A stretch of DNA of 64,000 nucleotides from Bacteroidales bacterium (GCA_016934055.1 JAFGTR010000028.1:7929-71928); one strand, 5' to 3'. Shown: positions 7,359-64,000, counted from the first letter of the stretch. Notes: generated by a model not told the origin, from the sequence alone. Program-made: numbers and translations.

Positions 7359-7715
7359 TTATTCTTCTTTTATAATTGTCAAGTCCGCATCTCCCCACAA
7401 TTCTTCGAGTTTATAATAATCACGGGCCTCTTTAATAAAAACATGTACTACCACAGATCCGTAATCGAGCAATATCCATCTTGCATTTTCGGTCCCCTCG
7501 CGATGTTTAACATTTGTTCCGGTCAATTCCTTAACTTTTTTCTCAACAGCATCGGCTATGGCATGGACCTGTGTTGTTGAACCGCCATGACACAGAATGA
7601 AACTATCGCACATGGCATATCCCAGTTTAATCAGATCAATTTTGACAACTTCTTTGCCCTTTTTGTCCAGTATTGCATCTGTTATACAATTTAGCAATTC
7701 GTTATTATTTCCCAA
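7359..7715 (-). CDS. rsfS: Ribosome silencing factor RsfS (Iojap family)
   Basis: 118 aa. The profile ILDKKGKEVVKIDL...HVFIKEARDYYKLEELW is typical of RsfS. The only available start in frame is TTG. Confidence 0.85.
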   Translation of the reverse strand: MGNNNELLNCITDAILDKKGKEVVKIDLIKLGYAMCDSFILCHGGSTTQVHAIADAVEKKVKELTGTNVKHREGTENARWILLDYGSVVVHVFIKEARDYYKLEELWGDADLTIIKEE

Positions 7716-7746
7716 AATTAATGAATGTATTAATAGTATTACTCTG

Positions 7747-7754
7747 CAAAATTA
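7747..7754 (-). promoter_or_regulatory. Candidate Bacteroidota -7 box TAATTTTG for rsfS-ftsH
   Basis: Matches TAnnTTTG 32 nt upstream of the rsfS TTG start. It is part of a 14-nt direct repeat. Confidence 0.4.
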
Positions 7755-7887
7755 ATGAATTTAGCAGGATTATAATGTATAATTCAGACCGTTTATCATG
7801 TCTGACATTTAGGTATCTTTGTTTTAACACCTTTGTTGTTTATTTGTTCTATCAACAATAGTACCAAAACCATCAAAGTCACCTTTT

Positions 7888-13733: not shown

Positions 13734-16190
13734 TTATTCAAAAATGAGAGGTTTATCAACTTTTTCCTGCAGCAATGTCAAATCAAGTACCTGCATGACA
13801 TTATCAACATAGTGAAATGTAAGTCCGTTTAAGTATATCTCCTTTATCTCACTGATATCCTTGCGGTTTTCTTCAGACATAATAATCTCTTTAATATCAG
13901 CACGTTTAGCGGCAAGAATTTTTTCTTTGATCCCTCCCACCGGCAACACTTTACCTCTGAGTGTAATTTCGCCTGTCATGGCAATACTTTTTTTCACTTT
14001 ACGCTGTGTAATGGCAGAAGCTATTGATGTAACCATTGTAATACCGGCAGAAGGCCCATCTTTAGGGATAGCTCCTTCAGGCACATGCAAATGTACATTC
14101 CAGTTTTCAAAAAGGCCGGGCTTAATATCAAGCTTTTCGCTGTGTGATTTTATATATTCAAGGGCAATGACAGCCGACTCTTTCATAACATCCCCAAGGT
14201 TACCGGTGATGGTCAGAACACCTTTACCCCTGCTGAGACTTGTTTCAACAAACAATATTTCACCTCCCGAGGCTGTCCATGCAAGACCTGTAACAACACC
14301 GGCAAACTCATTTCCCTGATATTTATCCTTAAGGTATTTTGGCGGACCCAGGATAATCTCTATATCCTTTATGGCTAATTTAACATTATAGCTTTCATTA
14401 AGGGCCACTTTCATGGCTGTAATCCTGCAGATTTTGGCAAGCTGCTTATCAAGTTCACGCACCCCTGATTCACGCGTGTAATTATCAATGATATATTCAA
14501 TAACCTGAGATGTGAATTTCAGGTGTTTTTTCATAAGACCATGATTCTTCAGTTCCTTTGGAATAAGATGTCGTTTGGCTATTTCTACCTTTTCCTCCAG
14601 AATGTATCCTGGAATGTTGATCAATTCCATCCGGTCAATGAGTGCAGGATTGATGGTGCTTGTAGTGTTTGCCGTGGCAATAAACAACACTTTTGAAACG
14701 TCATATTCCAGTTCAAGAAAATTGTCATAGAAAGTGCTGTTTTGCTCGGGATCAAGCACTTCCAGCAAGGCAGACGCAGGATCTCCGTGAAAGTCCCTGC
14801 CAACTTTGTCAATTTCATCGAGTACAAAAACCGGATTTGATGTTTTTGTTTTTTTCAGACTCTGGACTATCCGGCCTGGCATTGCCCCAATGTATGTTTT
14901 GCGGTGTCCACGGATTTCGGCTTCATCATGAAGTCCGCCCAGCGACATCCGTATATATTTCCGGTTAAGGGCTTTGGCAATGGATTTTCCCAGGGATGTT
15001 TTTCCGACACCCGGAGGACCATAAAGACAGATAATAGGAGATTTCAGATCACCCTTCAACTTCAAAACAGCCAGGTGCTCCACAATTCTTTCTTTCACCT
15101 TTTCAAGGCCGAAATGATCCTTATCGAGGATGGCCCTTGCCCTGTGAAGGTCAAAATTATCTTTTGTATACTCGTTCCAGGGGAGTTCCAATAATGTCTG
15201 AAGGTAATTGATCTGAACCGAATATTCGCCTGTAGCAGGATTCAGACGGTTAAGTTTTTCCACTTCTTTCAGAAAAACTGCTGAGACATCTTTACTCCAT
15301 TTTTTCTTCCTGCCCCTGGCTTTCAGCTCTTCTATCTCCTGTTCCAGGGGATTGCCTCCCAGTTCATCCTGGATTGTCTTCATCTGCTGGTGGAGAAAAT
15401 ATTCGCGCTGTTGCTGGTCAATGTCGAGTCTGACTTTATTCTGAATATCATTTTTCAATTCAAGCAATTGTACCTCTCTTGAAAGATATTGAAGCAACAG
15501 TGTTGCCCTTTTTTTCAGGTTATTGGTCTCCAGGAGCTGCTGTTTCTCTGTAATTTTAATATCACTGTTTGAACTGATAAAATTGATCAGGAAGGAAGAA
15601 CTTTCAATATTGCGCACCGCAAATGAAGTTTCCTGCGGTATGTTGCTGGATAATTTTATGATTTTTAGTGAAAGGTCTTTCAATGAGCCAATAATGGCTT
15701 CAAATTCCGGATCTTTTTTCCGGGGTTTGGAATCATCCATAGGACTTACCTTACCTATCAGATATGGCTCTTTGGAAAGAACACCTTCAAACTGAAAACG
15801 CTTTTTGCCCTGGATAATGACAGAGGTTGATCCATCAGGCATCTCCAGTATTCTTAAAATATGCGCTATGGTCCCTATCTTATATAATTCATCAGGAGCA
15901 GGATCTTCGTTATTAGGATCCTTTTGTGCCAGTGTACCGATTATTTTTGTTTTCTGATAAGAATCGCGTACCAGTTTCATCGATCTGTTCCTTCCCACCG
16001 TTATGGGAATGATGACCCCCGGAAACAATACCGTGTTGCGCAAAGGCAACACAGGCAAACTATCGGGTATTTGAGTCATGTTAAGACTATCTTCATCCTC
16101 TTCCGATATAAGGGGTATGAAATCACTGTCATCATTAATGGGTGAAGCAATAAACAAGTTGTTGTGTTTTTTATCCTGTGATATACTCAT
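13734..16190 (-). CDS. lon: ATP-dependent Lon protease (LonA)
   Basis: 818 aa with a LON N-domain. Walker [10 protein letters not shown], Walker [10 protein letters not shown], and the catalytic Ser context [11 protein letters not shown]. Confidence 0.96.
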
Positions 16191-16248
16191 AAATTATAAT
16201 TCCTGCAAATAATAACAAAATTCTGGACAAAATGTCAGTTGCCTGTGT

Positions 16249-16269: not shown

Positions 16270-16286
16270 TAGCAATCGTTGTGCCA
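16270..16286 (-). promoter_or_regulatory. Sigma-54 (RpoN) -24/-12 promoter candidate upstream of lon
   Basis: The minus strand reads TGGCAC-AACGA-TTGC-TA, a perfect fit to TGGCAC-N5-TTGCw. It is intergenic, 80 nt upstream of the lon ATG. Confidence 0.6.
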
Positions 16287-21578: not shown

Positions 21579-22823
21579 CTAAAATCTTTCAAAATCTTTA
21601 TCATCTTCAGAGGATGGCACAATGCCCTTTATACTCTTCAGCTTATATCCGTCAGACTGCTTTTCACCGGTTTTAACATCAGGCATGTCAGATGGCCTTT
21701 TAAACTGTTGTTTATTGTTTGTTTTAAAGAAAGAAATTAACTCGGTAAGTTGCTCTGCCTGCGAAGACAATTCCTCAGCATTGGAGGAAAGTTCTTCTGC
21801 CGAAGAAGCATTTTGTTGTGTTACACTGTTTAATTGCTGTATAGCAGAACTGACCTGGTTAGCTCCGTTATTTTGCTCAATGCTTGAAGCGGTAATTTCC
21901 TGTATAAGCCTGGTTGTTTTTTCAACAGTGGGAAGAGTATTGACCATCACTTCACCGGCTCCGTTAGTCAGCTCAAAGCTTTCATGGGTCAGACTGACAA
22001 TTTCTTCTGCTGCAACTTTACTCCTTTCAGCAAGCTTTCTGACTTCAGCAGCCACTACGGCAAAACCTTTACCATGCTCTCCTGCCCTGGCAGCTTCAAC
22101 AGCTGCATTCAGTGCAAGAATATTGGTTTGAAAAGCAATATCGTTGATGACAGTTATCTTCTCAAGTATAGTCTTATTCGCTTCAACAGCCTTTTTTGCC
22201 CTTGAGGAAACCTCCATGATTCCATTATTGGCTTCCTGTGATGTTGATTCTGTTTGTTGTGCGTTCTCGGTATTGCTCGCAATATTAGCAGCCATCTGTT
22301 CCATCGTGGAAGATATTTCTTCAACTGTGGATGCCTGTTCATTGGCCCCCTGCGATAACTGCTGAGATGCATTACTGATTTGCTGGCTGGCGGCATGAAG
22401 ATGATCGGCATTTCTGTCAATTTTCATAATTATATTATGCAAATTGCTCACCAGTTCGGCAAGAGAATTATTCAATATGCCTAATTCGTTCTGAGCTTTT
22501 GTTTCCTGAATTTTGATATCCAGGTTCCCCTCTGACACAGCTTTTACCTGAGAAATGGCATTATCCAGCGGTTTACGCAATAGATTATTAATTATAATAA
22601 ATACCACTGTGCCGAGTGCAAAATTCAGTGGCGTAATCCACAGCATATGAATTCCCCCCAGTTTATACTGAACCAGGTCAGCAAACGTAATATAAAAGAT
22701 AAACAATACGATGTAAAAGCTGAAAGTAAACATGATGGATTTCCTGAAGATAAGTTTCAGAATCAGATAAGCCACCGGTATACCGCCGATGACTACCAAG
22801 GCCTGTCTAAGATATTCATTCAT
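21579..22823 (-). CDS. Methyl-accepting chemotaxis protein (membrane-embedded N-terminus, HAMP, MA domain)
   Basis: Highly conserved hairpin tip [44 protein letters not shown] region after the N-terminal TM helices. Confidence 0.9.
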
Positions 22824-44703: not shown

Positions 44704-45285
44704 TTATCCCTCATACCTGCCCGATATAACCTTCCAGTCAAGTATATCCCAGAAGGCCTGCAGATAATCAGGCCTATTATTCTGATAATCGAGATAATAC
44801 GCATGCTCCCAGACATCGCAGGTTAAAAGCGGCAATAAACCATTTCGCAAAGGATTGCCGGCATTGGATTCCTGGACGATATCAAGGGTAAGATCTTCCT
44901 TTTTCACCATCCAGACCCAGCCTGATCCAAAAAGTGTAATGGCCGATTTTGAGAATTCTTCCTTAAAAGAATCAAAAGACCCATACTGTTTGCTTATAGC
45001 TTCGGCAAGCCTCCCCGCAGGTTCATGCAAACCCCCGGGTGAAAAGCTTAGAAAATAAAAGGTATGATTCCATACCTGAGCACCGTTGTTGAAAATGCCG
45101 CCATCAGCTTCACGGACAATCTGCTCAAGAGTTGCATTTTCAAACTTTGTTCCCGGTATCAGTTTGTTCAGGTTGTTGATATAGCCCTGGTGATGTTTAC
45201 CATAATGAAATTCAAGCGTCTGCTTCGAAATATGAGGGTGGAGCGCATCAAGGGCATACGGCAGTTTCGGCAATTCAAATGGCAT
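44704..45285 (-). CDS. sodB: Superoxide dismutase, Fe-type
   Basis: PYALDALHPHIS...FHYGKHH, Fe-type AQVWNHTFYF, and [18 protein letters not shown]. Confidence 0.9.
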   Translation of the reverse strand: MPFELPKLPYALDALHPHISKQTLEFHYGKHHQGYINNLNKLIPGTKFENATLEQIVREADGGIFNNGAQVWNHTFYFLSFSPGGLHEPAGRLAEAISKQYGSFDSFKEEFSKSAITLFGSGWVWMVKKEDLTLDIVQESNAGNPLRNGLLPLLTCDVWEHAYYLDYQNNRPDYLQAFWDILDWKVISGRYEG

Positions 45286-45454: not shown

Positions 45455-45499
45455 CCCTCAAATCTTTAAACCTACCTGACGGCAGGCAGGCCCTCAAAC
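45455..45499. repeat. Second copy of the REP-like element (8-nt units + hairpin CCTACCTG-acgg-CAGGCAGG + CCCTCAAAC). An extra hairpin CTGCC-ttcc-GGCAG lies at 45440-45453.
   Basis: Near-identical to 11882-11936. It overlaps the last 9 codons and the stop of the Mn-type SOD. Confidence 0.7.
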
Positions 45500-46086
45500 T
45501 TTCGTCCAACCTCATCCCAGTTGATGACATTCCAGAAAGCTGCCACATAGTCATTCCTGCGGTTCTGGTATTTCAGATAATAAGCATGCTCCCATACGTC
45601 AAGGCCAAGAATGGGTGTTCCTTTCACATCGGCGATATCCATTAAAGGATTATCCTGATTGGGTGTTGAAACAACTTTCAGCTCCTGCCCGCTTTTTATC
45701 AGCCAGGCCCAGCCAGAGCCAAAACGTGTCATCGCAGCGGAAGAAAAGGTTTCCTTAAATTTTTCAAAAGATCCGAAATACCGGTTAACAGCTGCGGCAA
45801 GGTCACCTGAAGGCTGACCACCACCGGTAGGCGACATGATCTCCCAGAACAGATTGTGATTGTAAAAACCACCCCCGTTATTTCTCACGGCCACAGGCAA
45901 TTTTGATACTGAAGTCAGAATTTCTTCTATTTTTTTGTTTTCCCACTCTCCTCCTGCCAAAGCATTGTTAAGGTTGGTGGTGTAAGCGGCGTGATGCTTT
46001 GTATGATGGATTTCCATTGTAAGGGCATCAACATGAGGTTCCAGCGCTCCATAATCATACGCCAATTTTGGTAATTCAAATGCCAT
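45472..46086 (-). CDS. sodA: Superoxide dismutase, Mn-type or cambialistic
   Basis: [11 protein letters not shown]...IHHTKHH, Mn-type [13 protein letters not shown], and [18 protein letters not shown]. The C-terminal KFEGLPAVR is encoded by the repeat element. Confidence 0.9.
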
Positions 46087-49353: not shown

Positions 49354-49552
49354 ACGCATAAGCCGTTTAAATAACAGGATCTGCAAATATGCAGACTTTG
49401 GCAAAAACCTGTTAAAACACGACCAAATGTAATGAATAATTAGCGTTCAATAAAACATGAAAAAATGGCAGTAACATTTTCCTCAAAAACGATTATTATT
49501 GTAATTTTGTCAGACGGAAATATCCATAAGCCATGTTTTTGGAGAAAAATAA

Positions 49553-50794
49553 ATGGAAAATATTGAATTACAGAAAATAAAACAGCGTTTTAGCATCATT
49601 GGCAACGCTCCCGGTTTAAACCGTGCTATTGACATTGCCCTGCAGGTAGCCCCTACCGATCTTTCAGTTTTGATTACCGGAGAAAGCGGTGTTGGGAAAG
49701 AAGTTTTTCCCAAGATTATTCATCAGTTCAGTTCCCGCAAACATGGGACTTATATTGCTGTGAATTGCGGCGCTATACCTGAAGGAACAATTGATTCAGA
49801 ATTATTTGGTCATGAAAAAGGCTCTTTTACCGGTGCTTATGAGAGCCGGAAAGGTTATTTTGAAGTAGCTAACGGCGGAACCATATTTCTTGATGAGATT
49901 GCAGAGCTTCCCCTGTCCACACAGGTAAGATTATTAAGGGTTCTTGAAACGGGTGAGTTTTTGAAAGTCGGATCATCTAAAGTGGTTAAAACCAATGTCA
50001 GGGTTATTGCAGCGACCAATGTTGACATTCAGCATGCTATTCAGGAAGAGCGTTTTCGGGAAGATCTTTTTTACAGGCTCAACACAGTGCCCATTGAAAT
50101 ACCACCTTTGCGGGACAGAAAAGAGGACATTATGCTGTTATTCCGCAAATTTGCTATAGATTTTGCCGAAAAAAACCGGATGCCGGCCATCACCCTTTCA
50201 GATGACGCCATGAGAATCCTTTCAAACTATCGCTGGCCCGGCCATATACGTCAGCTGAAAAATATCACCGAACAGATATCGATCATTGAATCAAAAAGGG
50301 AAATCACCGCTGAAATATTACAGCAATATCTTCCCGATTATTATGAATCAAAATTGCCCGCATTATATGATGCAATCGATCAGAAGACATTTGCCACAGA
50401 AAGGGAGATCCTGTATAAGATACTTTTTGATATGAAAAATGATGTCAATGACCTGAAAAAACTTGTTTTTGAGATTATGCAACACGGTCCGGCCGCTGCT
50501 GAAGTACACGAAGGCCATGCCAGTGTTATACAGAAACTTTATGAAGATGTGGATGCGGTCATGACCGATGAAAAGGCCGCGCGTAAGTTTGAAATAATAA
50601 AACCTCAATCTGATAATATCCAGGACACCCAGGAGGTCTTTGAAGAATCATTGTCTCTGGCAGACAAAGAAATGGAGCTTATTATCAAAGCACTGGAAAA
50701 ACATCACGGCAAACGAAAAAATGCGGCCAATGAGCTGGGTATCTCAGAACGGACATTGTACAGAAAAATTAAAGAATACAATATTGAAGATTAA
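49553..50794 (+). CDS. Sigma-54-dependent transcriptional activator (bEBP) without an N-terminal sensory/receiver domain
   Basis: The AAA+ core starts about 20 aa from the N-terminus. Walker A GESGVGKE, GAFTGA-loop variant GSFTGA, Walker B IFLDEI, RVIAATN, C-terminal Fis-type HTH ELGISERTLYRKIKEY. An insert of about 110 aa sits between the AAA+ core and the HTH. Confidence 0.9.
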   Translation: MENIELQKIKQRFSIIGNAPGLNRAIDIALQVAPTDLSVLITGESGVGKEVFPKIIHQFSSRKHGTYIAVNCGAIPEGTIDSELFGHEKGSFTGAYESRKGYFEVANGGTIFLDEIAELPLSTQVRLLRVLETGEFLKVGSSKVVKTNVRVIAATNVDIQHAIQEERFREDLFYRLNTVPIEIPPLRDRKEDIMLLFRKFAIDFAEKNRMPAITLSDDAMRILSNYRWPGHIRQLKNITEQISIIESKREITAEILQQYLPDYYESKLPALYDAIDQKTFATEREILYKILFDMKNDVNDLKKLVFEIMQHGPAAAEVHEGHASVIQKLYEDVDAVMTDEKAARKFEIIKPQSDNIQDTQEVFEESLSLADKEMELIIKALEKHHGKRKNAANELGISERTLYRKIKEYNIED

Positions 50795-50800
50795 AATGTT

Positions 50801-51313
50801 ATGAAAAGAACCTTGACATGGACAATCATTTTGTGGGTCTCATGGTTGACTCAGGGTTGTTTTACCTTTTCACTGACCACAAAGGATGCCTCAATACCAA
50901 TTGAAGCGGAGACTGTTTCTGTACAATACTTTCAGAATATGGCCAGGATCGTTGAACCTGCTCTCAGCCAACAGTTAACGGATGATCTGAAAGATTATAT
51001 ACAGGAAAATACCAGACTGAAGCTGATCAATGGGGCAGGCGACCTTGATTTCGAAGGAACCATAACCGGTTATGATATAAAACCGGTATCCATAACATCT
51101 GATGAACAGGCAGCACAAAACCGTTTTACGATAACAGTTAAAGTGAAGTATACATGCTCCGTAAAAGAGGACATGGATTATGATGCCAGTTTCTCAAGAT
51201 ATGAAGATTTTGATTCTTCACAGGATTTTGAGACTGTAAAAAATGATATGACCGAAAGGATAATGAAGTTGCTTATAGAAGATATCTATAATAAAGCATT
51301 TGTTAACTGGTGA
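50801..51313 (+). CDS. LptE-like lipoprotein
   Basis: Lipobox LTQGC. 170 aa. The position between the sigma-54 activator and secG is, as I recall, conserved in Bacteroidota. Confidence 0.55.
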   Translation: MKRTLTWTIILWVSWLTQGCFTFSLTTKDASIPIEAETVSVQYFQNMARIVEPALSQQLTDDLKDYIQENTRLKLINGAGDLDFEGTITGYDIKPVSITSDEQAAQNRFTITVKVKYTCSVKEDMDYDASFSRYEDFDSSQDFETVKNDMTERIMKLLIEDIYNKAFVNW

Positions 51314-51320
51314 TACAGGT

Positions 51321-52316
51321 ATGCTGAGTAATGACATATTGATAAAATACATTGACAATCCGGAATTGCTGAATTCACAGTCATTAAAGGAAATTCAGCT
51401 TCTGACAGACCAATATCCTTTCTTTCAGACTGCCCGTTTACTGGAAGTCAAAAATCATCATGCTGCCGGTTCTTCCGGTTTTCAGTCGAAACTCCATTTT
51501 GGGGCAGCCTATGTTGCTGATCGCAAAATCCTGTATGAACTTATTTATCCTCTTGAAACAAAAACCATAAGGTCCGAAGAGAAAGAGAAAGATGAAACCG
51601 TGACCGGAAAAGTTGAAAAAGAAATAAAACCCACCCTGAAAGAGAACATTGCCGACATCATGGCAACCCAATTGCAAATAATCGATTCGCTCGATCCTGA
51701 GGCTGCTGAACTGATCCCTATGATTTCCCTTGATATTGAAAAGGAATACGGCGGATTGGAAACAGAAGAAAATATCATGAGCCATGAAAATACCGGTGAT
51801 GAGATTATATGGCTTGAAGGGGCTGAAACTGATCACCTGGTTTCAGTTAATCAGGATGAACCCTCGGTTTTGTCGGTTGATAAACACGAAGCCCTGATTG
51901 ACCTGGAGGAAGAAGATACAGTTGAACAGGTTTCCGCAGATATTGATCTGAAAACTGAACAGCCGGCGGAAAATGAAATGCATCAGGAAGCCGGACCTGA
52001 TGTTCCGGATATACAGCAGGAAACTGAAATTCCGGACAAAGATGAAACTCCCAGTAAAAGTACATTAATTGACCGCTTTATTGAGACAAATCCTCGTATT
52101 GCACCACCGGTTGGACCTGTCCCGGAAATTGATGTATCAGCGGAAAGTGTTAAGGAAGATGAAGGATTTCTTACTGATACACTGGCAAAAATTTATGTTA
52201 AACAGGGGTATTATTCAAAAGCTATTTTTGCTTATGAAAAATTGATGTTGAAATATCCGGAAAAAAGTACTTACTTTGCAGCCCAAATTGAAGAGATTAA
52301 AAAAATAATGGAATAG
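51321..52316 (+). CDS. Hypothetical acidic protein with a C-terminal TPR-like motif
   Basis: The central region is very D/E-rich. The C-terminus YVKQGYYSKAIFAYEKLMLKYPEKSTYFAAQIEEIKK is TPR-like. Start moved to ATG 51321. Confidence 0.5.
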   Translation: MLSNDILIKYIDNPELLNSQSLKEIQLLTDQYPFFQTARLLEVKNHHAAGSSGFQSKLHFGAAYVADRKILYELIYPLETKTIRSEEKEKDETVTGKVEKEIKPTLKENIADIMATQLQIIDSLDPEAAELIPMISLDIEKEYGGLETEENIMSHENTGDEIIWLEGAETDHLVSVNQDEPSVLSVDKHEALIDLEEEDTVEQVSADIDLKTEQPAENEMHQEAGPDVPDIQQETEIPDKDETPSKSTLIDRFIETNPRIAPPVGPVPEIDVSAESVKEDEGFLTDTLAKIYVKQGYYSKAIFAYEKLMLKYPEKSTYFAAQIEEIKKIME

Positions 52317-52335
52317 TTCACTGTGAACCGTGAAC

Positions 52336-52383
52336 ATCAAATCATCAAATCATTAAATCATCAAATCATTAAATCAATAAATA
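52336..52383. repeat. Six tandem 8-nt units (ATCAAATC ATCAAATC ATTAAATC ATCAAATC ATTAAATC AATAAATA) ending 4 nt before the secG ATG
   Basis: Read directly. Preceded by GTGAAC x2 (52323, 52330). Confidence 0.8.
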
Positions 52384-52387
52384 AACT

Positions 52388-52711
52388 ATGTACGGATTAA
52401 TTATAGGAATTGTCTTGTTTCTTTCCATTCTTCTGATCCTTGTTATCCTGGTTCAGAATCCCAAAGGAGGAGGTCTGGCATCCGGATTTTCATCTTCCAA
52501 TCAAATTATGGGCGTTAAGCGAACAGCTGATTTTATTGAAAAAGCCACATGGGGTTTTGCCTCCGCTATTGTAGCGTTGAGCATAATTGCCACAATGTTT
52601 ATTAACCGGAATAAAGAAACCGGAATCCAGACCAAGATCCAAAATATTGAAAATGCTATTCCCGCTGATCAGATGCCAACTTATCCCACCAATATACCCG
52701 GGGAAGAATAA
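52388..52711 (+). CDS. secG: Preprotein translocase subunit SecG
   Basis: 107 aa with two TM helices. LVQNPKGGGL is the SecG signature. Confidence 0.85.
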   Translation: MYGLIIGIVLFLSILLILVILVQNPKGGGLASGFSSSNQIMGVKRTADFIEKATWGFASAIVALSIIATMFINRNKETGIQTKIQNIENAIPADQMPTYPTNIPGEE

Positions 52712-52744
52712 GACTGTTATATCAAAAGGATAATGAAGAAATAT

Positions 52745-52783
52745 AAAAAAGTGTCAGTATGTCATAGTAACTGACACTTTTTT
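52745..52783 (+). terminator. Rho-independent terminator after secG (13-bp stem, symmetric A/T tracts)
   Basis: AAAAAAGTGTCAG-tatgtcatagtaa-CTGACACTTTTTT. Confidence 0.8.
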
Positions 52784-52929
52784 ATTCTGTGACAGAAATG
52801 CAGACTTTTTTACAAGATACTGAAATTCTGTTTTTTAATGCTTTCAGCCGGATTTTCTTTTGTTTATCCATTACGGAAAACCTGAAAAACTGTCCATTCC
52901 GGGCATGATAAAATACATGTTATTGTATT

Positions 52930-52945
52930 TGGCACAGAATTCGCT
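52930..52945 (+). promoter_or_regulatory. Sigma-54 -24/-12 promoter candidate upstream of groES
   Basis: TGGCAC-AGAAT-TCGC-T versus the consensus TGGCAC-N5-TTGCw. There is one mismatch, and GG/GC and spacing are intact. It lies 50 nt upstream of the groES ATG, after the secG terminator. Confidence 0.5.
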
Positions 52946-52994
52946 AACAGTCAATACGAATTTTTAAGATATGTTTAACTTAAAATAATAGGAT

Positions 52995-53273
52995 ATGTCA
53001 GATGTAAAAATTAAACCTTTAGCCGACAGGGTGGTTATAAAACCATTGGAAGCCCAGGAAAAAACTGTTAGCGGGATCATCATCCCCGATTCTGCCAAGG
53101 AAAAACCCCAGCGTGGAACTGTCGTTGCAGCAGGACCCGGTACAAAAGATGAAAAAATTGAAGTGAAAGTAGGTGATGTTGTTTTGTATGGAAAATATGC
53201 AGGAACAGAAATCAACATCGATGGCACGGATTATCTGATCATGAAGCAGACTGATATTCTGGCCATTGTATAA
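52995..53273 (+). CDS. groES: Co-chaperonin GroES
   Basis: [12 protein letters not shown]...[24 protein letters not shown]... 92 aa. Confidence 0.96.
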
Positions 53274-53292
53274 CCTTATGAATAAACAATAA

Positions 53293-54945
<1,653 letters not shown>

Positions 54946-54965: not shown

Positions 54966-54998
54966 AAAAACCTCGTCGGCATGACGGGGTTTTTTTTT
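54966..54998 (+). terminator. Rho-independent terminator after groEL
   Basis: AAAAACCTCGTC-ggcat-GACGGGGTTTTTTTTT. Confidence 0.85.
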
Positions 54999-55146
54999 GC
55001 CTGACACCTCTCGTTTTTGAATCATATTAGATTGCATTTCATTAAAACATTGTGTAAATTTATTTGTAAAGTACGGCATGAATGGCAGTTTTGACTTTTC
55101 TGTACATTGGATGCTCCAATGATATTCTGCAAGGTTATCAGTGATT

Positions 55147-58100
55147 ATGTTTAAAAGGAAAAGCCTGGCGAAGATGAAAGAAGAAAAAAATCCGGAGAAA
55201 ATTTTTGATCAGTTTTTCTCAAACAGCATAGATCTTCTTTGTATTGCCGATATGCAGGGCTATTTCAGAAAGCTCAATCCGGAATGGGAACGTACCCTGG
55301 GTTATTCATTATCCGAACTGGAGGGAAAAAAGTTTATTGAATTTGTTCATCCTGAAGATGTTGAGAATACTGTTGAAGCTACAGTTCAACTGGCAAACAA
55401 TCGGCAGGTACACAACTTCATAAACCGATACAGACACAAGGATGGTTCATACCGTTGGATAGAATGGCGATCATTTCCCGCAGAAGAAATGATCTATGCC
55501 TCAGCACATGATATTACGGAACAGAAAAAGACCGAAGAGGCTTTGAAAGAAAGTGAAGAAAGGAATCGCCTTATTTCTTCGCTGGTTGCAGATTACGTAT
55601 TTAAATTTGAAGTGGATGAAAATAAAAATCTGAACCTGACCTATATTTCTGAAAACTTCAGAGAATTAACCGGCCGGACCACCGATGAAGCAAAGGATAT
55701 CAGCAACTGGGCGAATATATTTTATCCGGAAGACTTGCCAAAAGTTCAGCAATTCATACAACAAATGCTGTCGGACGCCAGACCCGGTGAACTGGAATGC
55801 AGATCATTGACGAAAGGAAGAATACGATGGATAAGCATATATGCAAAACCCGGGACTGATGAAACAACAGGACGGGTTATTTCCATAACCGGTGCTGTTA
55901 AGGATATTTCAGGTAAAAAAGCAGCAGAAACGGAACTGCGGCAAAGTGAGGAAAAATTCCGCTCTATCGTAGAGCATTCCCTGGCCGGCATTTTCACGAT
56001 TGATGAAAACTTCCGTTTTATTTATGTTAATGATGAATTGTGCAAAATTGCAGGTTATTCCCACGATGCAATTATCGGCATGGACTTTCGTAAGCTTTTG
56101 TCACCAAAAAGCCTTGAAATGGTTGTTGATCGATATAGACGCAGACAAAAGGGAGAAGTCGTGCCCCACCGTTATGAAATTGACATAATTCGTGGTGACG
56201 GGGAAATCCGACAGGCTGAAATGATGGTGAATGTTATTAAAAATAGTGAAGGAAAACCCCGCAGTATGGGACAGCTCATTGACATTACCGAACGGAAAAA
56301 GACTGAAAATGATTTGCGCGAAAGTGAGTTTCGTTTACGCAGCTTTATTGAAGAATCCCTCGAAGGTGTGGTTATAATAAATGAAAAAGGCCTTATTGAA
56401 GAATGGAACCAGAAGGCTGAAACCATCACAGATCTATCACGTGATAAGGCCATTAATCAGTATTGGTGGCATATCATCTATGAGTTGCTGCCACCTGAAA
56501 GGCGCACTATTATATCGGAAAAACAACTGGAAAACGCCATTAAGGAAATCCTGAAAACCGGAAAAATAACCTCTAAACCAAATGATAATTACGCCATTAA
56601 ACATCCTGATGGTGTAATCAAATATATCGAACAAAAGGAATTTACCATCAAAACGGAAACCGGTTACCGCATCGCCGGTATCCTGACAGATATTACAGAT
56701 AAAATCCAAACCGAAGCATCACTGGAACAGGCCAGAATGTTTAACGATGCCTTGCTTGAAAGCACGCCGGGTCTTGTTTACATATACGATGAAAAGGGTA
56801 ACCTTGTAAGCTGGAACAAGCGTCATGAAACAGAAACCGGTTATGATGCCGGCGAACTTGCCCATATGAACCTTTACGACTGGTTTAAGGATGAGATTAA
56901 AAAAACTACCAAAAACAAAATAAAGGATTTTTCAGCCGAAACCGTTATGAATTACGAGGCACCCATCATCAAAAAAAACGGTGATGAAGTTCTGTATTAT
57001 TTTTCTACCGTTACCACAATGATTAACGGAAAGAAATATTATGTAGGGATAGGTTTGGATATATCCGAACAAAAACGTATAGAAAACGAGCTCCGGCAGT
57101 TTGCCGGATTACATCAGACCATACTCGATACCGTTTCGGTAGGTCTCATCTATGTTAAGGATCGTAAAATCCAATGGGCAAACAGCTTATTCTTCAGAAT
57201 GTACGGTTATGAATACCAGGAAACATTTGAGGCTGACACATCTATGCTGTATAAAAGCAAAGAAGATTACCGGAGGATTGGAAAAGAGGCTTATCCTGTA
57301 CTGGCTAAAGGCGAAATATATTCCACCGAAACACAGGCGAAAAAGAAAGATGGCAGTGTTTTTTGGGTTTTCTTAAGTGGAAAAGCCCTGGATCCGGACA
57401 AGCCCGAAGAGGGTTCCATCTGGATGATACAGGATATCACTGAAAGAAGGAATACTGAGCTTGCCCTGAAAAAAAGTGAAGCTCAGTTCAGAGACATGAC
57501 CCAGAACATTCCGGGAATGGTCTTTCAATTTTATACCCGTAAAAATGGTGATCAGGGGTTTAATTATGTCAGTGATCAGTCATTGAAATTCCTGGGAATT
57601 GAAAAAGAAAAAACCACGGATTTTTATAATGAATTCATTAATGGTATTGCTGAAGAAGACCGGCAAAGATTTTTTTCTTCAGTTCAGACAGCAGTTAACA
57701 ACATGTCGAGATGGCAATTTGAAGGAAAATACGTTAAGCGCGATGGAAAACATATGTATTTCAAGGGTATAGCCCAACCAAAGATGGCAGACCAGGAAAT
57801 TATTTTTGACGGATTGATACTTGATGTCACTGAAAAAAGAATGGCCGAAGAAAGACTGCGCGAAAGCGAACAACTCTATCGAAGTATAGTTGAGATGGCC
57901 CCTGACGGGATAACCCTTATCGATCTGACAGGTAAAATACTGATGTGCAACAAACAAATGGCGACACTTCTGGGCTATGATGACATTGATCAGGTCATCG
58001 GCCTAAAAGTAACAGATGTCATCGCACCGGAGTTACACACCAAACTGATACAGGATTCACATTACATACAGGAACATGGCCATTCAGAAAGTTTGCGCTA

Positions 58101-59355
58101 TAAATATGTGAAAAAAGACGGCACTTTTTTTACCGGGCATTACCGGGGCTCTATGATATATGACATCGACGGACATCCTGTCGCCTACCTTGGGATTGTT
58201 ACAGACATCACTGAAAAAGAGAAAGCCGAAGAAGCCATAAAACAGAGCGAGGAATCGCTGAACCAGGCACAGCATATGGCAAAGATCGGCAATATGGAAC
58301 TTGACCTGGATAAAGATACCGGTTATTTTTCCGATGAATTGTATAAGCTTTTCGGATTAGATCCCGGAAAAGGTGTCCCGAAATTTAATGACTTCATAAA
58401 GGTTATTCATCCTGATGACCGGCAAATTATCATTAACACCAACAAGCCCCGCAAAAAAACAGCACAATCACTCACAATTGAATACCGAAGCAATCCTGCC
58501 CTCGGTCCGGTAAGGTATTTCCTGTCAAACAACGAAATGTTTTATGATCCGGTTGCCGGATCACGAAAATTAATTGCCACTATTCAGGATATAACCGAAC
58601 GAAAAAAAGCTGAAGCTGAGATAATAAAGCTAAACCAGGAGCTCGAAAAAAAGGTGGAAGAAAGAACAGTTAAACTGAACGAAGCCGTTAAAGATCTTGA
58701 ATCATTCGCCTATAGCGTATCTCACGATTTACGGGCACCTATCCGTCATATAGATGGATTTCTTAAATTGTTGTATGCCAATATTATACATCCAAATGAA
58801 GCTATAACAGGTTACTATAATAAAATTGAAAGTGCGGCACAACGTATGTCGGTCATGATAGACAGCCTCCTCACTTTTTCACGACTGGGGAGAAAAGAAT
58901 TGACATTTTCAGAGATTGATACGGATACGATTATTCATGAGATCATTGAATTATATAAAACGGATATCGGGAACCGCAAAATTCAATGGAAAATTTCCAG
59001 GCTTCCACATATACATGGCGACAAAAATTTAATTAAATTGGTATTTGAGAACCTTATTTCAAACGCTGTCAAATACACATCGAAAAAACAAAAGGCCATC
59101 ATTGAAATAGGATCAACTTTTGAAAACGGACAACATAAGATATTTATCAGAGATAATGGCATCGGCTTTGATATGGCTTATGCCGATAAGCTTTTTGGTG
59201 TTTTTCAACGCCTCCATAATGCTGAGGATTATGAAGGAATAGGTATCGGACTGGCAAATGTGAAACAGATTATAGAAAAACATGAAGGAACAATAAAAGC
59301 TGAAGGCATAATTAATAAAGGAGCAACCTTCTGTCTTACCCTACCCAAAAACTGA
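55147..59355 (+). CDS. Cytoplasmic multi-PAS sensor histidine kinase (nine PAS/PAC modules + HisKA + HATPase_c)
   Basis: Nine recurrences of the PAC-end/linker motif D-[IV]-[TS]-[EDG]-x-[KRIE]-[KRQ], each followed by a short acidic coiled segment. H-box FAYSVSHDLRAPIRHIDGF, N-box ENLISNAVKYT, G-boxes DNGIGF and GIGIGL. No TM helix. GTG 55141 is also a possible start. Confidence 0.9.
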   Translation: MFKRKSLAKMKEEKNPEKIFDQFFSNSIDLLCIADMQGYFRKLNPEWERTLGYSLSELEGKKFIEFVHPEDVENTVEATVQLANNRQVHNFINRYRHKDGSYRWIEWRSFPAEEMIYASAHDITEQKKTEEALKESEERNRLISSLVADYVFKFEVDENKNLNLTYISENFRELTGRTTDEAKDISNWANIFYPEDLPKVQQFIQQMLSDARPGELECRSLTKGRIRWISIYAKPGTDETTGRVISITGAVKDISGKKAAETELRQSEEKFRSIVEHSLAGIFTIDENFRFIYVNDELCKIAGYSHDAIIGMDFRKLLSPKSLEMVVDRYRRRQKGEVVPHRYEIDIIRGDGEIRQAEMMVNVIKNSEGKPRSMGQLIDITERKKTENDLRESEFRLRSFIEESLEGVVIINEKGLIEEWNQKAETITDLSRDKAINQYWWHIIYELLPPERRTIISEKQLENAIKEILKTGKITSKPNDNYAIKHPDGVIKYIEQKEFTIKTETGYRIAGILTDITDKIQTEASLEQARMFNDALLESTPGLVYIYDEKGNLVSWNKRHETETGYDAGELAHMNLYDWFKDEIKKTTKNKIKDFSAETVMNYEAPIIKKNGDEVLYYFSTVTTMINGKKYYVGIGLDISEQKRIENELRQFAGLHQTILDTVSVGLIYVKDRKIQWANSLFFRMYGYEYQETFEADTSMLYKSKEDYRRIGKEAYPVLAKGEIYSTETQAKKKDGSVFWVFLSGKALDPDKPEEGSIWMIQDITERRNTELALKKSEAQFRDMTQNIPGMVFQFYTRKNGDQGFNYVSDQSLKFLGIEKEKTTDFYNEFINGIAEEDRQRFFSSVQTAVNNMSRWQFEGKYVKRDGKHMYFKGIAQPKMADQEIIFDGLILDVTEKRMAEERLRESEQLYRSIVEMAPDGITLIDLTGKILMCNKQMATLLGYDDIDQVIGLKVTDVIAPELHTKLIQDSHYIQEHGHSESLRYKYVKKDGTFFTGHYRGSMIYDIDGHPVAYLGIVTDITEKEKAEEAIKQSEESLNQAQHMAKIGNMELDLDKDTGYFSDELYKLFGLDPGKGVPKFNDFIKVIHPDDRQIIINTNKPRKKTAQSLTIEYRSNPALGPVRYFLSNNEMFYDPVAGSRKLIATIQDITERKKAEAEIIKLNQELEKKVEERTVKLNEAVKDLESFAYSVSHDLRAPIRHIDGFLKLLYANIIHPNEAITGYYNKIESAAQRMSVMIDSLLTFSRLGRKELTFSEIDTDTIIHEIIELYKTDIGNRKIQWKISRLPHIHGDKNLIKLVFENLISNAVKYTSKKQKAIIEIGSTFENGQHKIFIRDNGIGFDMAYADKLFGVFQRLHNAEDYEGIGIGLANVKQIIEKHEGTIKAEGIINKGATFCLTLPKN

Positions 59356-59360
59356 CAAAT

Positions 59361-59801
59361 ATGGAAAAAATACCGGTCATACTGTATGCGGAAGACAACC
59401 TGAATGACATTGAGCTGACATTAGCGGCTTTCAGGGAAAGCAACCTCGCCAACCAGGTTGATGTTGTCCGCGACGGTGAGGAAGTGCTGGATTATCTCTT
59501 TTACAGAGGAAAATATGTCAACAGAGAAAAATCAATCCCTGTTTTTGTATTGCTCGACCTTAAAATGCCAAAGCTTGACGGAATAGAAACACTAAAAAAA
59601 ATCCGCGCCTCAGAAGAATACAGAAATCTGCCCGTGGTTATGCTGACTTCCTCTCAGATGGAATCTGATGTTTATAAAAGCTATCAGCTCGGGGTTAACG
59701 GATTTGTTGTTAAGCCCATTGATTTTGCTGATTTTGTGAAAGCCATTAAGGGCATTGGCTATTTCTGGGCTATATTGAATACCTCACCATGCAAGTTATG
59801 A
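59361..59801 (+). CDS. Stand-alone receiver-domain response regulator (Rcp/CheY-like)
   Basis: 146 aa. AEDNLNDIEL, phospho-acceptor context LLDLKMPKLDG, MLTSS, and VVKP. Confidence 0.9.
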   Translation: MEKIPVILYAEDNLNDIELTLAAFRESNLANQVDVVRDGEEVLDYLFYRGKYVNREKSIPVFVLLDLKMPKLDGIETLKKIRASEEYRNLPVVMLTSSQMESDVYKSYQLGVNGFVVKPIDFADFVKAIKGIGYFWAILNTSPCKL

Positions 59802-61720
59802 CCAAAACAGACCTCCACATACTGATGCTTGAAGACGAGCCTTTGGATGCCGAACTGAACAAAGCACAGCTTTTATTGCTTGAGGAATATAATTGCATTG
59901 TTAACCTTGTGGGCGACAAACAATCCTATCTGCATGCCCTTGAAACAACTAATCCTGACATTATTCTCAGCGATTATAACCTTCCGCAATACAATGGTTT
60001 AGAGGCCCTGCATGACCTCAGGAAAAGAAATATGCTTATTCCGTTTATTTTTGTTACAGGCACATTAAATGAAGAAACAGCGGCCGGCACCATTAAAGCA
60101 GGAGCCTGGGATTATGTTGTTAAAGACAGGTTATTTCGTTTACCGCTGGCTATTCGCAGTGTTCTTAAACTTAAGGATGAAAGAATGATTGCCTATAAGG
60201 CAGAAGAAAAGATCAACCGGCTGGTAACAGCCATTGAACAGACATCATCACAGATCATTGTTACCGATGAATCAGGAAAGATAGAATATGCCAATAAAAA
60301 GTTTTCTGAAATTACAGGATTCCCTTTTGAAGACATCCTTGGAAAAGAAATCACTAACTTATTCTCACCTGAAGAGATTGACACAGAAAACGGGTCTTTA
60401 GCCTGGAATGCATTTAAAAAAGGGGAGGTGATCCGGGGTGAGACACAGAGCAAAAAAAAGAACGGATCTTCATTCTGGGAATTTGTAACCATTACGCCCA
60501 TTAAAAATACTGATAACATAATAACAAATTATGTCGTTGTTAAAGAGGATATTACACAACGCAAAATCATGGAGCAGGAATTGCTGGATGCCCTAAAAAA
60601 AGCAGAACAATCCGATAAACTTAAAGATGCCTTCCTGCAAAATCTGTCTCATGAAATTCGAACTCCACTGAACGCTATTGTAGGTTTTTCCGAACTGTTA
60701 CACAGCGGAACTGAAAAAAACATCGATATAATAAAGGAGTATACATCCATAATACGAAGCAGCAGTAATCAATTATTGTCTATCGTCTCGGATATACTTA
60801 CCATTGCCAGTATACAGACCGGACAGGAAAGAATTGTTTTTAAAACAGTAGATGTTGACGGGCTTATTGATCATTTATATGAAATATTCCTGCCTGTGGC
60901 GAATGAAAAAAAGCTGACCTTATCACTGAATAAACCTTTTACTGATAAGACCGTTTTCATCCAAACCGATGAGACCAAACTCAACCAGATCCTTACCAAC
61001 CTCTTAAACAATGCTTTTAAATTCACACACCAGGGTTTTGTTGAACTGAAATACAGAATTCTGGATAAAACGATCGATTTTTATGTTACTGACACCGGTA
61101 TAGGAATATCAAAAGAATCACAAACATTTATATTTGAACGTTTCAGGCAGGCCGGAAAATCTATTCATATTGATTATGGGGGAACCGGTCTTGGGCTTTC
61201 CATTTCAAGTTCCTTTGCACATATGCTTGGCGGTACTCTTCATGTAAACTCCGAGCCCGGCAAAGGATCAACTTTTGTTTTCTCTTTACCATTCACAACC
61301 GTAGAAAAATCCAAAGCATCTGAAGAAGATGCCATCGTAACCCTTGCTGAAAAAAAGCTTACGATTCTTGTCGTGGAAGATGAAATTAACAATTTCATGC
61401 TTATTGAAGCCATTCTTAAAAAACACGATGTCAAGATACTTCATGCCGCAAATGGTTATGAGGCATTGAAAATATGTGAGAAAAATCCACATATCAATCT
61501 TGTACTGATGGATATTAAAATGCCGGAAATGGATGGTGTACAGGCATTCAAAGAAATAAGAAAGATAAATACCCATTTGCCTATTATTGCTCAGACAGCC
61601 TATGCCCTGGAAAAAGAAAAACAGGAATTCCTCAGCATCGGATTTGATGACTACATTGCCAAACCCCTTGACCGCAGGAAATTGCTTAATCTCATCAGCA
61701 TTTATACCGGATCAGCCTGA
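59789..61720 (+). CDS. Hybrid histidine kinase: REC - PAS - HisKA - HATPase_c - REC
   Basis: N-terminal receiver (LMLEDEPLD...SDYNLPQYNG), PAS, H-box LSHEIRTPLNAIVGF, G-box GTGLGLSIS, C-terminal receiver (VVEDEINN...MDIKMPEMDG). It overlaps the preceding gene by 13 nt. Confidence 0.9.
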   Translation: MQVMTKTDLHILMLEDEPLDAELNKAQLLLLEEYNCIVNLVGDKQSYLHALETTNPDIILSDYNLPQYNGLEALHDLRKRNMLIPFIFVTGTLNEETAAGTIKAGAWDYVVKDRLFRLPLAIRSVLKLKDERMIAYKAEEKINRLVTAIEQTSSQIIVTDESGKIEYANKKFSEITGFPFEDILGKEITNLFSPEEIDTENGSLAWNAFKKGEVIRGETQSKKKNGSSFWEFVTITPIKNTDNIITNYVVVKEDITQRKIMEQELLDALKKAEQSDKLKDAFLQNLSHEIRTPLNAIVGFSELLHSGTEKNIDIIKEYTSIIRSSSNQLLSIVSDILTIASIQTGQERIVFKTVDVDGLIDHLYEIFLPVANEKKLTLSLNKPFTDKTVFIQTDETKLNQILTNLLNNAFKFTHQGFVELKYRILDKTIDFYVTDTGIGISKESQTFIFERFRQAGKSIHIDYGGTGLGLSISSSFAHMLGGTLHVNSEPGKGSTFVFSLPFTTVEKSKASEEDAIVTLAEKKLTILVVEDEINNFMLIEAILKKHDVKILHAANGYEALKICEKNPHINLVLMDIKMPEMDGVQAFKEIRKINTHLPIIAQTAYALEKEKQEFLSIGFDDYIAKPLDRRKLLNLISIYTGSA

Positions 61721-64000
61721 TCAACCTTTCAGCAAAAGAAGTTTATCCTTCGCTTCATAAACCGTTTCAATATTATCGATGGTCAGAATAAGTCTGTTGT
61801 TTCCTTCTTTCATTCTGAATTGCCTGTGATCCTTCTGGATTACGGTAAGGATAGTGCCAAACACCAATGATTTGTAAAAGTCAGAATCAGGATCTGAAAT
61901 GAAATACCCGATCATTTTCCGGCCCTTGAGCAAGAGCTTTTCAAAACCCAGACTGACGGCCAGCCATCGTAACCTTACCACTTCAATCAACTCAACAGAC
62001 TCGGGTGGCAAAGGACCAAAACGGTCTTTTAGCTGGTTTTCGAATGAAGCAAGTGCATTTTCATTTTCTATCTGATCGAGTTGCCGGTAAAGATCCATTC
62101 GCTCTGCCACGTTTGAAATATAGAAATCGGGGAAGAGCAATTCAAGGTCCGTATCAATCTGACAATCTTTAAGATAATATGAAGATGCCGGTTTATGTTC
62201 CTTTTCGGTTTCAAATACCGCCTTGTATTCTTTTTCTTTGAGCTCCTGAATGGCTTCATTGAGAATGCGCGTATATGTTTCAAAACCAATATCGGCAATA
62301 AATCCGCTCTGTTCAGCGCCCAGCAGGTTACCCGCGCCACGAATATCGAGATCCTGTAAGGCTATATTGAATCCGCTTCCCAGGTCGGAAAATTCCTCAA
62401 TGGCTTTTACCCTTCTTCGTGCTTCAGGTGTCATAAGATGCAAAGGCGGTGCCAACAGGTAACAGAAAGCTTTCTTGTTCGACCTGCCAACGCGGCCACG
62501 AAGCTGATGAAGGTCACTAAGGCCAAAATGATGTGCATTGTTGATGAAAATTGTATTGGCATTTGGTATATCGAGCCCTGATTCAATAATTGTTGTCGAG
62601 ACCAATACGTCATAATCACCTCTGATAAAATCAAGCATGGTCTTTTCAAGCTTCTGACCCTCCATCTGGCCATGGGCAACAATGGTTCTGACACCGGGAC
62701 AAAGTCGCTGCACCAGACTTTGAATTTCAACAATATTCTGAATCCTGTTGTGGATAAAAAAGACCTGTCCGCCCCGCGAGACCTCATATAAAATACCTTC
62801 CTTGATGATATCCTCATTAAAGGTATGCAATTCGGTTACAATGGGATGACGATTCGGAGGCGGCGTATTGATGACAGACAGATCGCGGGCTCCCATCAGA
62901 GAAAACTGTAAAGTGCGCGGAATGGGAGTCGCTGTCAGTGTTAAAGTGTCGACATTCAGTTTCAGCCTTTTCAGTTTTTCTTTGGCCGCAACACCAAATT
63001 TTTGCTCTTCATCAAGGATGAGCAGGCCAAGATCTTTGAAGTGAACATCAGAGCCCAATAAACGATGTGTGCCAATGATAATGTCGACTTTCCCTTTCCC
63101 CAGATTCTCCAGCGTTATCTTTTGGTCTTTTGGTTTTCTCAACCTGCTGATATGATCGACATGGCAGGGAAAATCTTTCAGCCTTTCACTGAAAGTATTG
63201 TAATGCTGTAAAGCCAGTATTGTGGTGGGCACAAGAACGGCCACCTGTTTGTTGTCGGCAACAGCCTTAAAAGAAGCCCTAACAGCAACCTCAGTCTTTC
63301 CAAAACCTACATCGCCACATATCAGCCTGTCCATGGGAACTTCCGACTCCATATCTTCTTTGACTGCACGACTGGCTTTCTCCTGATCCGGCGTATCTTC
63401 AAAAATGAAAGAAGCCTCAAGCTCATATTGAAGATAAGTATCAGGAGAAAATGCCATGCCTTTTATCATCCTGCGTTTTGCATAAAGTGCAATCAAATCC
63501 CGGGCTATATCCTGAATCTTTCTTTTTGTTGATTGTTTCAAACGCTGCCAGGCTCCGCTTCCCAGTTTATAAAGACGCGGAGGCCCTTCTTCCCTGCCTT
63601 TGTATTTTGATATTTTGTGAAGAGAATGAATGCTCACATATAATATATCCTGATCCTGGTAAACCAGTCTTACAGCTTCCTGCATCCTGCCGTTGATATT
63701 AATTTTTTCAAGACCTCCGAATTTACCTATGCCATGATCAATATGAACCACATAATCACCGGGCTGTAAGCCTTTTAATTCCTTCAGTGTAAAGGCTCCC
63801 TTGTCAGAAAAATAAGCATCAAGGGTATATTTGTGATAGCGTTCAAATATCTGGTGATCAGTGAAACAGCATATTCTGATATCCTGATCTACAAATCCCC
63901 CGTGCAGGGTCTGGTGTAAAGGCCGAAAAGACAGTAACGGGTTAATGTCATGGAAAATGGCTGTCAGACGATCAATCTGTTTTTCACTGTCGCTTAAAAT
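61721..64000 (-). CDS. mfd: Transcription-repair coupling factor Mfd, C-terminal about 760 aa (5' end lies outside the window)
   Basis: The frame stays open from 63751 to the window edge; I translated it codon by codon. PGDYVVHIDHGIGKF, helicase motif I GDVGFGKTEVA, DEEQKFG, and a TRG/translocation motif region. Confidence 0.95.
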   Translation of the reverse strand: MLSDSEKQIDRLTAIFHDINPLLSFRPLHQTLHGGFVDQDIRICCFTDHQIFERYHKYTLDAYFSDKGAFTLKELKGLQPGDYVVHIDHGIGKFGGLEKININGRMQEAVRLVYQDQDILYVSIHSLHKISKYKGREEGPPRLYKLGSGAWQRLKQSTKRKIQDIARDLIALYAKRRMIKGMAFSPDTYLQYELEASFIFEDTPDQEKASRAVKEDMESEVPMDRLICGDVGFGKTEVAVRASFKAVADNKQVAVLVPTTILALQHYNTFSERLKDFPCHVDHISRLRKPKDQKITLENLGKGKVDIIIGTHRLLGSDVHFKDLGLLILDEEQKFGVAAKEKLKRLKLNVDTLTLTATPIPRTLQFSLMGARDLSVINTPPPNRHPIVTELHTFNEDIIKEGILYEVSRGGQVFFIHNRIQNIVEIQSLVQRLCPGVRTIVAHGQMEGQKLEKTMLDFIRGDYDVLVSTTIIESGLDIPNANTIFINNAHHFGLSDLHQLRGRVGRSNKKAFCYLLAPPLHLMTPEARRRVKAIEEFSDLGSGFNIALQDLDIRGAGNLLGAEQSGFIADIGFETYTRILNEAIQELKEKEYKAVFETEKEHKPASSYYLKDCQIDTDLELLFPDFYISNVAERMDLYRQLDQIENENALASFENQLKDRFGPLPPESVELIEVVRLRWLAVSLGFEKLLLKGRKMIGYFISDPDSDFYKSLVFGTILTVIQKDHRQFRMKEGNNRLILTIDNIETVYEAKDKLLLLKG

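Follow-up and report, generated by a model that had tools for sequence, protein, structure and literature searches.

The groES gene (92 aa; 52995-53273, + strand; NCBIfam GroES, E = 1e-39) is followed on the same strand by groEL (544 aa; 53311-54945), which was identified from its open reading frame and translation and has 70-95% identity to the GroEL proteins of relatives. An intrinsic terminator consisting of a 13-bp stem and a T-run lies after groEL (54966-54994, +) and closes a groES-groEL transcription unit of ~2.0 kb. All coordinates are those of the window, i.e., the whole 64,000-nt stretch of DNA that was analyzed.

Upstream of groES and also on the + strand are the genes for a bacterial enhancer-binding protein (EBP; 49553-50794), an LptE-like protein (50801-51313; PF04390), a conserved protein labelled 'TPR' (51300-52316; recognized by its synteny in relatives) and SecG (52388-52711; TIGR00810), the last gene of the upstream operon. 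As originally predicted, secG ends in a strong terminator. Folding and a repeat search placed its hairpin at 52743-52785 (+), with 16-bp arms that are 100% complementary, a dG of -20.4 kcal/mol (z -4.5) and a T-run after it. A generic sigma-70/terminator scan did not report this hairpin because its loop exceeds 8 nt. The hairpin sequence is kept in distant relatives, and a second, weaker hairpin follows at 52792-52831. The distance from the secG terminator to the groES promoter described below is ~144 nt, in agreement with the predicted 145 or so.

A gene for a 1404-aa multi-PAS histidine kinase (55141-59355, +) begins 200 nt downstream of groEL, and a hybrid kinase/receiver gene (59789-61720, +) comes after it. 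A methyl-accepting chemotaxis protein, a type of protein believed to be uncommon in Bacteroidota, is encoded at 21579-22823 (-). Tandem Fe/Mn superoxide dismutase genes are present at 44704-45285 (-) and 45472-46086 (-).

Predicted sigma-54 promoter of groES-groEL

The intergenic region between secG and groES contains a sigma-54 promoter core, TTGGCACAGAATTCGCT (52929-52945, +), which points at groES and in its surroundings reads ...catgttattgtatTTGGCACagaatTCGCTaacagtcaatacgaa... The core consists of T52929, TGGCAC (52930-52935), the spacer AGAAT (52936-52940), TCGC (52941-52944) and T52945. The 15-nt motif TGGCACAGAATTCGC occupies 52930-52944, with GG and GC spaced as in sigma-54 promoters. 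The original prediction had the sequence right, but its coordinates were slightly off: it placed the site at 52930-52945, an interval of 16 nt, whereas the string that it quoted is 17 nt long and begins at 52929. The remaining geometry agrees with what had been proposed. The site departs from TGGCAC-N5-TTGC at a single position, a T to C change in the -12 region that gives TCGC and lies outside the GG and GC. Both invariant dinucleotides are present at the canonical spacing, the -24 GG at 52931-52932 and the -12 GC at 52943-52944. Fifty nucleotides separate the -12 C from the groES ATG at 52995, and the T of TGG is 65 nt away from this ATG.

The transcription start predicted from the geometry of the -12 element is at 52956-52958 (+), which would give a 5' UTR of ~37-39 nt. 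This predicted start coincides with a CGAA motif, which relatives also have at that position. A block resembling tCGAAAtTTGAAAA is found at the predicted start and in the early 5' UTR (about 52956-52970), where the window version is ACGAATTTTTAAGA. Similar blocks occur at the same position in loci L081, L089, L109, L139, L140, L122, L092 and L116. No thermometer-like structure was apparent when the predicted groES 5' UTR was folded (z = -0.5), and an Rfam search of 52300-53400 returned only sub-threshold noise.

Conservation was assessed in two sets of loci. A GroES-based scan, with one genome per GTDB species, gave 80 loci, 71 of them from Bacteroidota; an EBP-based metagenome scan gave 80 further loci, of which 45 include groES. 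In 69 of the 71 Bacteroidota genomes, the 250 nt that precede groES contain the pattern TGG[CT]A-N8-G; shuffled sequences would give 3.7. All 45 metagenomic relatives with groES have the site, scoring 16.4-23.7 bits on the matrix described below and located 59-129 nt before the ATG. Together, 114 of 116 relatives have the promoter at the orthologous place, a count that overstates independence as the loci are phylogenetically related. Over 99 distinct relatives, the T of TGG lies a median of 65 nt before the ATG, and the modal distance is that of the window. Some matches outside the Bacteroidota (L062, L068 and L080) have a CIRCE element instead.

The window is most closely related to uncultured Bacteroidales MAGs and to one metagenome contig. 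The closest relative, L081, has 92% identity in GroES, 95% in GroEL and 88% in the EBP. Its site, TGGCATAGAATTCGCT, is also 65 nt from the ATG and has the same TCGC variant, in which the T-to-C change is shared by 11 other relatives as well. When the spacers of L081 and the window were compared by eye, the core was nearly identical while the flanks had diverged, and the distance between terminator and promoter differed by ~110 nt. Loss of the motif in close relatives had been named as an observation that would speak against the promoter. The motif is retained there, and in L081 it is retained at the same distance.

The 99 distinct sites define a lineage consensus, tTGGCAYAwwwTnTGm. Thus the canonical -12 C is itself variable in the groES sites of Bacteroidota (A 46, C 27 and T 23 of 99). 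At the position where the window departs from the general consensus, C is a minority state found in 11 of the 99 sites (~11%). The comparison of these sites shows that the TCGC variant of the -12 element is, by all appearances, tolerated and inherited. Only two of the 71 Bacteroidota genomes, L023 and L043, have no sigma-54 site upstream of groES. In L023 (Ferruginibacter) a sigmaA box, TAccTTTG, is found in its place, and in L043 groES follows almost directly after the secG terminator.

A second sigma-54 promoter in the window, TGGCACAACGATTGCT (16271-16286, -), is a perfect match and is located 81 nt before the ATG (16190) of lon (13734-16190, -; TIGR00763, E = 2e-279), after the terminator of an L31-like gene. 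The motif is thus present at several proteostasis genes of the window, groES-groEL and lon both. The two sites had also been thought to resemble each other 5' of the -24 box. This resemblance extends over 13 of 16 positions, 7 of which are TTGGCAC itself; relatives keep only the T directly before TGG (74 of 99), so the likeness carries no weight.

The reading of the groES site as a sigma-54 promoter passed every test that is possible on sequence. Region 52929-52945 is very probably a functional, conserved sigma-54 (RpoN) promoter of the bicistronic groES-groEL unit in a Bacteroidota bacterium of the Bacteroidia type. No RpoN-like ORF was present among the window ORFs scanned; the host genome presumably encodes rpoN, as is general knowledge for the phylum.

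Enhancer-binding protein and TGNCA dyads

The EBP gene lies 2.2 kb upstream of the groES promoter. Its product matches PF00158, PF25601 and PF02954 as well as NCBIfam, and has no N-terminal regulatory domain. PF00158 covers residues 15-182, with Walker A at 43-50 and GSFTGA at 90-95, and the HTH_8 domain covers residues 369-409. PDB homologues include NtrC1, FleQ, ZraR and PspF (E = 1e-60 to 1e-69). With Walker A, GSFTGA and HTH_8 all intact, the protein should be competent as a sigma-54 activator.

The overall architecture is that of PspF: the AAA+ domain begins at about residue 14, a Fis-type HTH is at the C-terminus, and receiver and sensor domains are absent. The window EBP differs from PspF in that its linker is ~120 aa longer and in that its proposed targets are cytoplasmic chaperones and proteases. 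PspF is the E. coli phage-shock activator and is autoregulated, and the candidate sites at the promoter of the window EBP are reminiscent of this. The longer linker contains a motif, EREILYKxLFDM..DLKKL (residues 283-304; window 50399-50464), which is strongly conserved in orthologues. It lies between the AAA+ lid and a variable part of the linker, and no Pfam model covers it. The motif is a candidate for a regulatory or partner-binding helix.

Among the 71 Bacteroidota genomes, about 45 have the gene order EBP-lptE-x-secG-groES-groEL. All 45 metagenomic loci with groES are syntenic, and several loci long enough to reach groES lack it. The promoter region of the EBP operon (49466-49512, +) has a sigmaA -7 box, TAATTTTG, at 49502-49509. 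Two TGNCA half-sites flank this box, at 49466-49470 and 49508-49512, 42 bp apart.

TGNCA pentamers are enriched at least 10-fold upstream of the -24 box in relatives; TGACA, for example, was found there in 39 loci, where 3.6 would be expected. Counted from the T of TGG, the starts of the pentamers are at -17, -25, -38 and -46. A search pattern, TGAMANNNTGTCM, had been defined post hoc from the window, and its statistics were therefore not relied on. The palindrome TGACA-N3-TGTCA, derived from relatives (L009, L035 and L042 among them), was used instead, with at most one mismatch. This dyad, TGACANNNTGTCA, occurs 104 times in the 29.5 kb that span -200 to +60 of the groES sites and 35 times in 1.06 Mb elsewhere, i.e., at a 107-fold density near groES sigma-54 sites. 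After de-replication, 35 of 49 groups have it, where 0.27 would be expected. The distance from dyad to -24 box has a period of 10.1 bp and is therefore helically phased; when each cluster was represented by a single proximal dyad (n = 22), R was 0.64, a value reached in 0 of 2000 null trials. Sixteen of the dyads found elsewhere precede the sigmaA -7 box of the EBP-encoding operon, which in Flavobacteriales is miaB-EBP, by ~20 nt. The loci behind these dyad counts are related to one another and do not amount to independent observations.

In the window itself there are three dyad matches, two of which are no more than 200 bp away from the two sigma-54 promoters. One dyad, TGTCAgtaTGTCA (52752-52764, +), is inside the secG terminator hairpin; it begins 178 nt before the T of TGG and is in register. 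Additional TGACA pentamers are present at 52772-52776, also in the hairpin, and at 52790-52794. A degenerate dyad, TGAAAaacTGTCC (52883-52895, +), precedes the T of TGG by 47 nt and has near-identical counterparts in L047, L002 and L049. At lon, the dyad TGACAttTTGTCC (16225-16237, -) agrees with TGACA-N3-TGTCA at 9 of 10 specified positions and is in the predicted 5' UTR, downstream of the promoter.

The occurrence of the dyad at the promoter of the EBP operon suggests that it may be the enhancer of that activator. As had been suggested, the adjacent PspF-like EBP may be the activator of groES-groEL, acting via TGNCA-N3-TGNCA dyads; the shared dyad element lends this some indirect support. 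The association of the dyads with groES promoters, the 10.1-bp register and their recurrence at the EBP operon lead to a broader proposal, which we put forward tentatively: the dyads might be the enhancer of a phylum-wide proteostasis circuit of Bacteroidota, with the EBP of the conserved EBP-lptE-x-secG-groES-groEL neighborhood, which has no regulatory domain, as its master activator. If so, the EBP would be the functional counterpart of sigma-32 or HrcA and would regulate itself, and in many lineages the secG terminator hairpin would serve also as an EBP enhancer. No description of the dyad element or of the activator assignment was found in the searchable literature.

It is also possible, if somewhat doubtful, that the promoter is real but is activated by another EBP encoded elsewhere in the genome, the dyads then belonging to a conserved secG terminator or serving as the operator for some other transcription factor, for example a stress repressor. 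A sigma-54 interaction domain is found in three proteins of Flavobacterium psychrophilum, and none of these candidate activators has been assigned (PMC9723704). Dyad half-sites make up the secG terminator hairpin in many lineages, and many dyads of syntenic loci sit in a hairpin followed by a T-run, i.e., in a terminator, which alone could account for part of the dyad signal in syntenic relatives. However, plain palindromes with no T-run are found in the non-syntenic loci L009, L035, L042 and L044, and TGNCA clusters are not a general feature of terminators within the window. The helical phasing to the -24 box and the 16 copies at the EBP-operon promoter also argue against this alternative. 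Several loci, mostly of Chitinophagales and Cytophagales and some of Bacteroidales, keep the promoter with no EBP-groES synteny, and the location of the lon dyad in the 5' UTR is one typical of repressors; both points favor it.

The proposed mechanism is as follows. Sigma-54 holoenzyme would bind the -24 GG and the -12 GC and form a closed complex, which an AAA+ EBP would open by ATP hydrolysis. The transcript would then begin at about 52956-52958 and stop at the 54966-54994 terminator. We infer that the groES-groEL operon is responsive to protein-folding stress, and its induction by heat is assumed by analogy.

Significance of the match and other control elements

The consensus TGGCAC-N5-TTGC, when one mismatch is allowed, has 9 matches in the 64-kb window against 4.6 expected. 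A consensus match by itself is therefore not significant, and a position matrix was built from the groES promoters of other Bacteroidota. These promoters came from 69 genomes and did not include that of the window. The 52930 site scores 20.2 bits on this matrix, above the training median of 19.1, and ranks first on both strands of the window (128 kb), where 0.07 such matches are expected in shuffles. In 1.4 Mb of related loci, both strands included, there were 16 matches of at least 13 bits at non-groES positions and none of at least 20 bits. A second set of loci had 8 non-groES matches of at least 15 bits in 1.34 Mb.

A perfect TGGCAC-N5-TTGC at 62440-62454 (-) was dismissed as a chance match, as it is inside the coding sequence of mfd (TRCF); this too means that consensus matches alone are not evidence. 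Other high matrix matches, at 18792 and 48139/48155, were dismissed because they are within coding sequence, and one at 44326 because it has no co-oriented gene downstream.

No CIRCE element and no exact sigmaA -7 box had been seen upstream of groES, and both absences were confirmed: CIRCE (TTAGCACTC-N9-GAGTGCTAA) had 0 matches there with up to 3 mismatches, and TAnnTTTG has no exact copy in 52712-52994. One-mismatch versions of the box are present at 52855, 52924 (TGTATTTG) and 52970 (TATGTTTA), and those at 52924 and 52970 could add some sigmaA-dependent transcription of groES.

The sigma-54 match could in principle be a chance motif, with groES-groEL transcribed from a sigmaA promoter at the degenerate box 52924 or 52970, or by read-through from secG. 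The lack of enrichment of the one-mismatch consensus, the perfect match inside mfd and the three one-mismatch sigmaA boxes are in accord with this. Opposed to it are the rank of the site as the top matrix match, its retention at the orthologous place in relatives and the almost identical core of L081 amid diverged flanks that differ by ~110 nt in length. In addition, two terminator-like hairpins follow secG, and in F. psychrophilum the groS row of Table S2 gives a sigma-54-type start (TSS 867211) for the promoter TTGGCATAATTTCTGA, 14 nt after the -12 G and with a 30-nt UTR (PMC9723704). Taken together, a chance origin is very improbable.

Extremely unlikely is a reading in which TGGCA-N8-G is no sigma-54 promoter but an operator to which a regulator protein binds, in the manner of a CIRCE-like repressor site: the poor retention of the canonical -12 C and the similarity of TGGCA to the nearby TGNCA half-sites would fit it, but the element is not palindromic, and the T, GG and G 12 nt downstream are at the fixed spacing of the sigma-54 signature in all selected sites, an invariance that is partly circular as the selecting pattern demands these bases. 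The F. psychrophilum start 14 nt after the -12 G also disagrees with an operator, as do the remFG experiments of that study, in which promoter activity was tested by mutating conserved SM4 bases (PMC9723704).

Sigma-54 control of chaperones and proteases in Bacteroidota

In E. coli, groESL is controlled by sigma-32 (RpoH), and in Gram-positive bacteria and alpha-proteobacteria by CIRCE/HrcA; in these systems chaperonins are likewise tied to folding stress. They operate by a regulated abundance of sigma-32 or by a repressor, in contrast to the activator-dependent closed complex proposed for the window. To our knowledge, chaperone control in Bacteroidota uses neither sigma-32 nor HrcA/CIRCE. What has been documented in this phylum instead is the use of sigma-54 promoters at groESL, lon, dnaK and related genes. 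A parallel elsewhere is lonD of Myxococcus xanthus, a heat-shock protease gene which, like the window genes, has a sigma-54 promoter. Its activator HsfA differs in being a two-component response regulator from another phylum that serves a single gene.

A published case is F. psychrophilum, where 5'-end RNA-seq linked the sigma-54 motif SM4 to groS-groL, lon, dnaK, grpE-dnaJ, htpG, clpB and skp (Guerin et al. 2021, PMC9723704). In its co-expression cluster B254, five out of seven units have SM4 promoters (PMC9723704). The arrangement is close to that of the window. The same gene pair has secG directly upstream and an EBP-LptE operon a few genes farther upstream, the motif is of the same type (TTGGCATAATTTCTGA there and TTGGCACAGAATTCGCT in the window), the distance to the ATG is about 57 nt there and 65 nt in the window, and lon has a sigma-54 site in both. 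There are also differences. F. psychrophilum belongs to the Flavobacteriia whereas the window organism is Bacteroidia-like, and its -12 element is CTGA rather than TCGC. Second, a TGTCA half-site lies 17 nt upstream of its TGG, and the window has none at that place. Third, its promoter is backed by TSS and expression data, whereas that of the window is predicted from sequence.

A 2025 survey found COGs of the GroES, GroEL, DnaK, DnaJ, GrpE and Lon type enriched for predicted sigma-54 sites in Bacteroidota, with the enrichment reported for Flavobacteriia, Bacteroidia and Cytophagia (Carrera-Reyna et al., PMC12316311). It cites Sabree et al. 2009 for groES and grpE of B. thetaiotaomicron (PMC12316311). 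The survey differs from the present analysis in working at the level of phylum and COG; its available sections name no activator and describe no enhancer element (PMC12316311). Francke et al. 2011 make no mention of Bacteroidetes chaperones. Given the two published studies (PMC9723704 and PMC12316311), sigma-54 control of chaperones and proteases in Bacteroidota is not new.

The groES site belongs to this phylum-wide sigma-54 chaperone/protease regulon of Bacteroidota, and lon is its second member in the window, outside which its other members are located. The regulon fills in Bacteroidota the role that sigma-32 or HrcA/CIRCE has elsewhere. The window adds a clean example of the Bacteroidia type to this known control. 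It also adds, from the phased dyad and its copy at the EBP's own promoter, a testable hypothesis on enhancer and activator.

A further protease gene of the window, ftsH, is preceded by a weaker match. Upstream of rsfS-ftsH there is a TGGTAC-N5-TTGA at 7866-7852 (-), TGGTACtattgTTGA, which scores 9.9 bits and adjoins a divergent biotin-ligase gene. In F. psychrophilum, ftsH is co-expressed with the sigma-54 chaperone cluster and has no mapped TSS (PMC9723704). Two exact sigmaA boxes (TAATTTTG) are located nearer to rsfS, within 7715-7757 (-).
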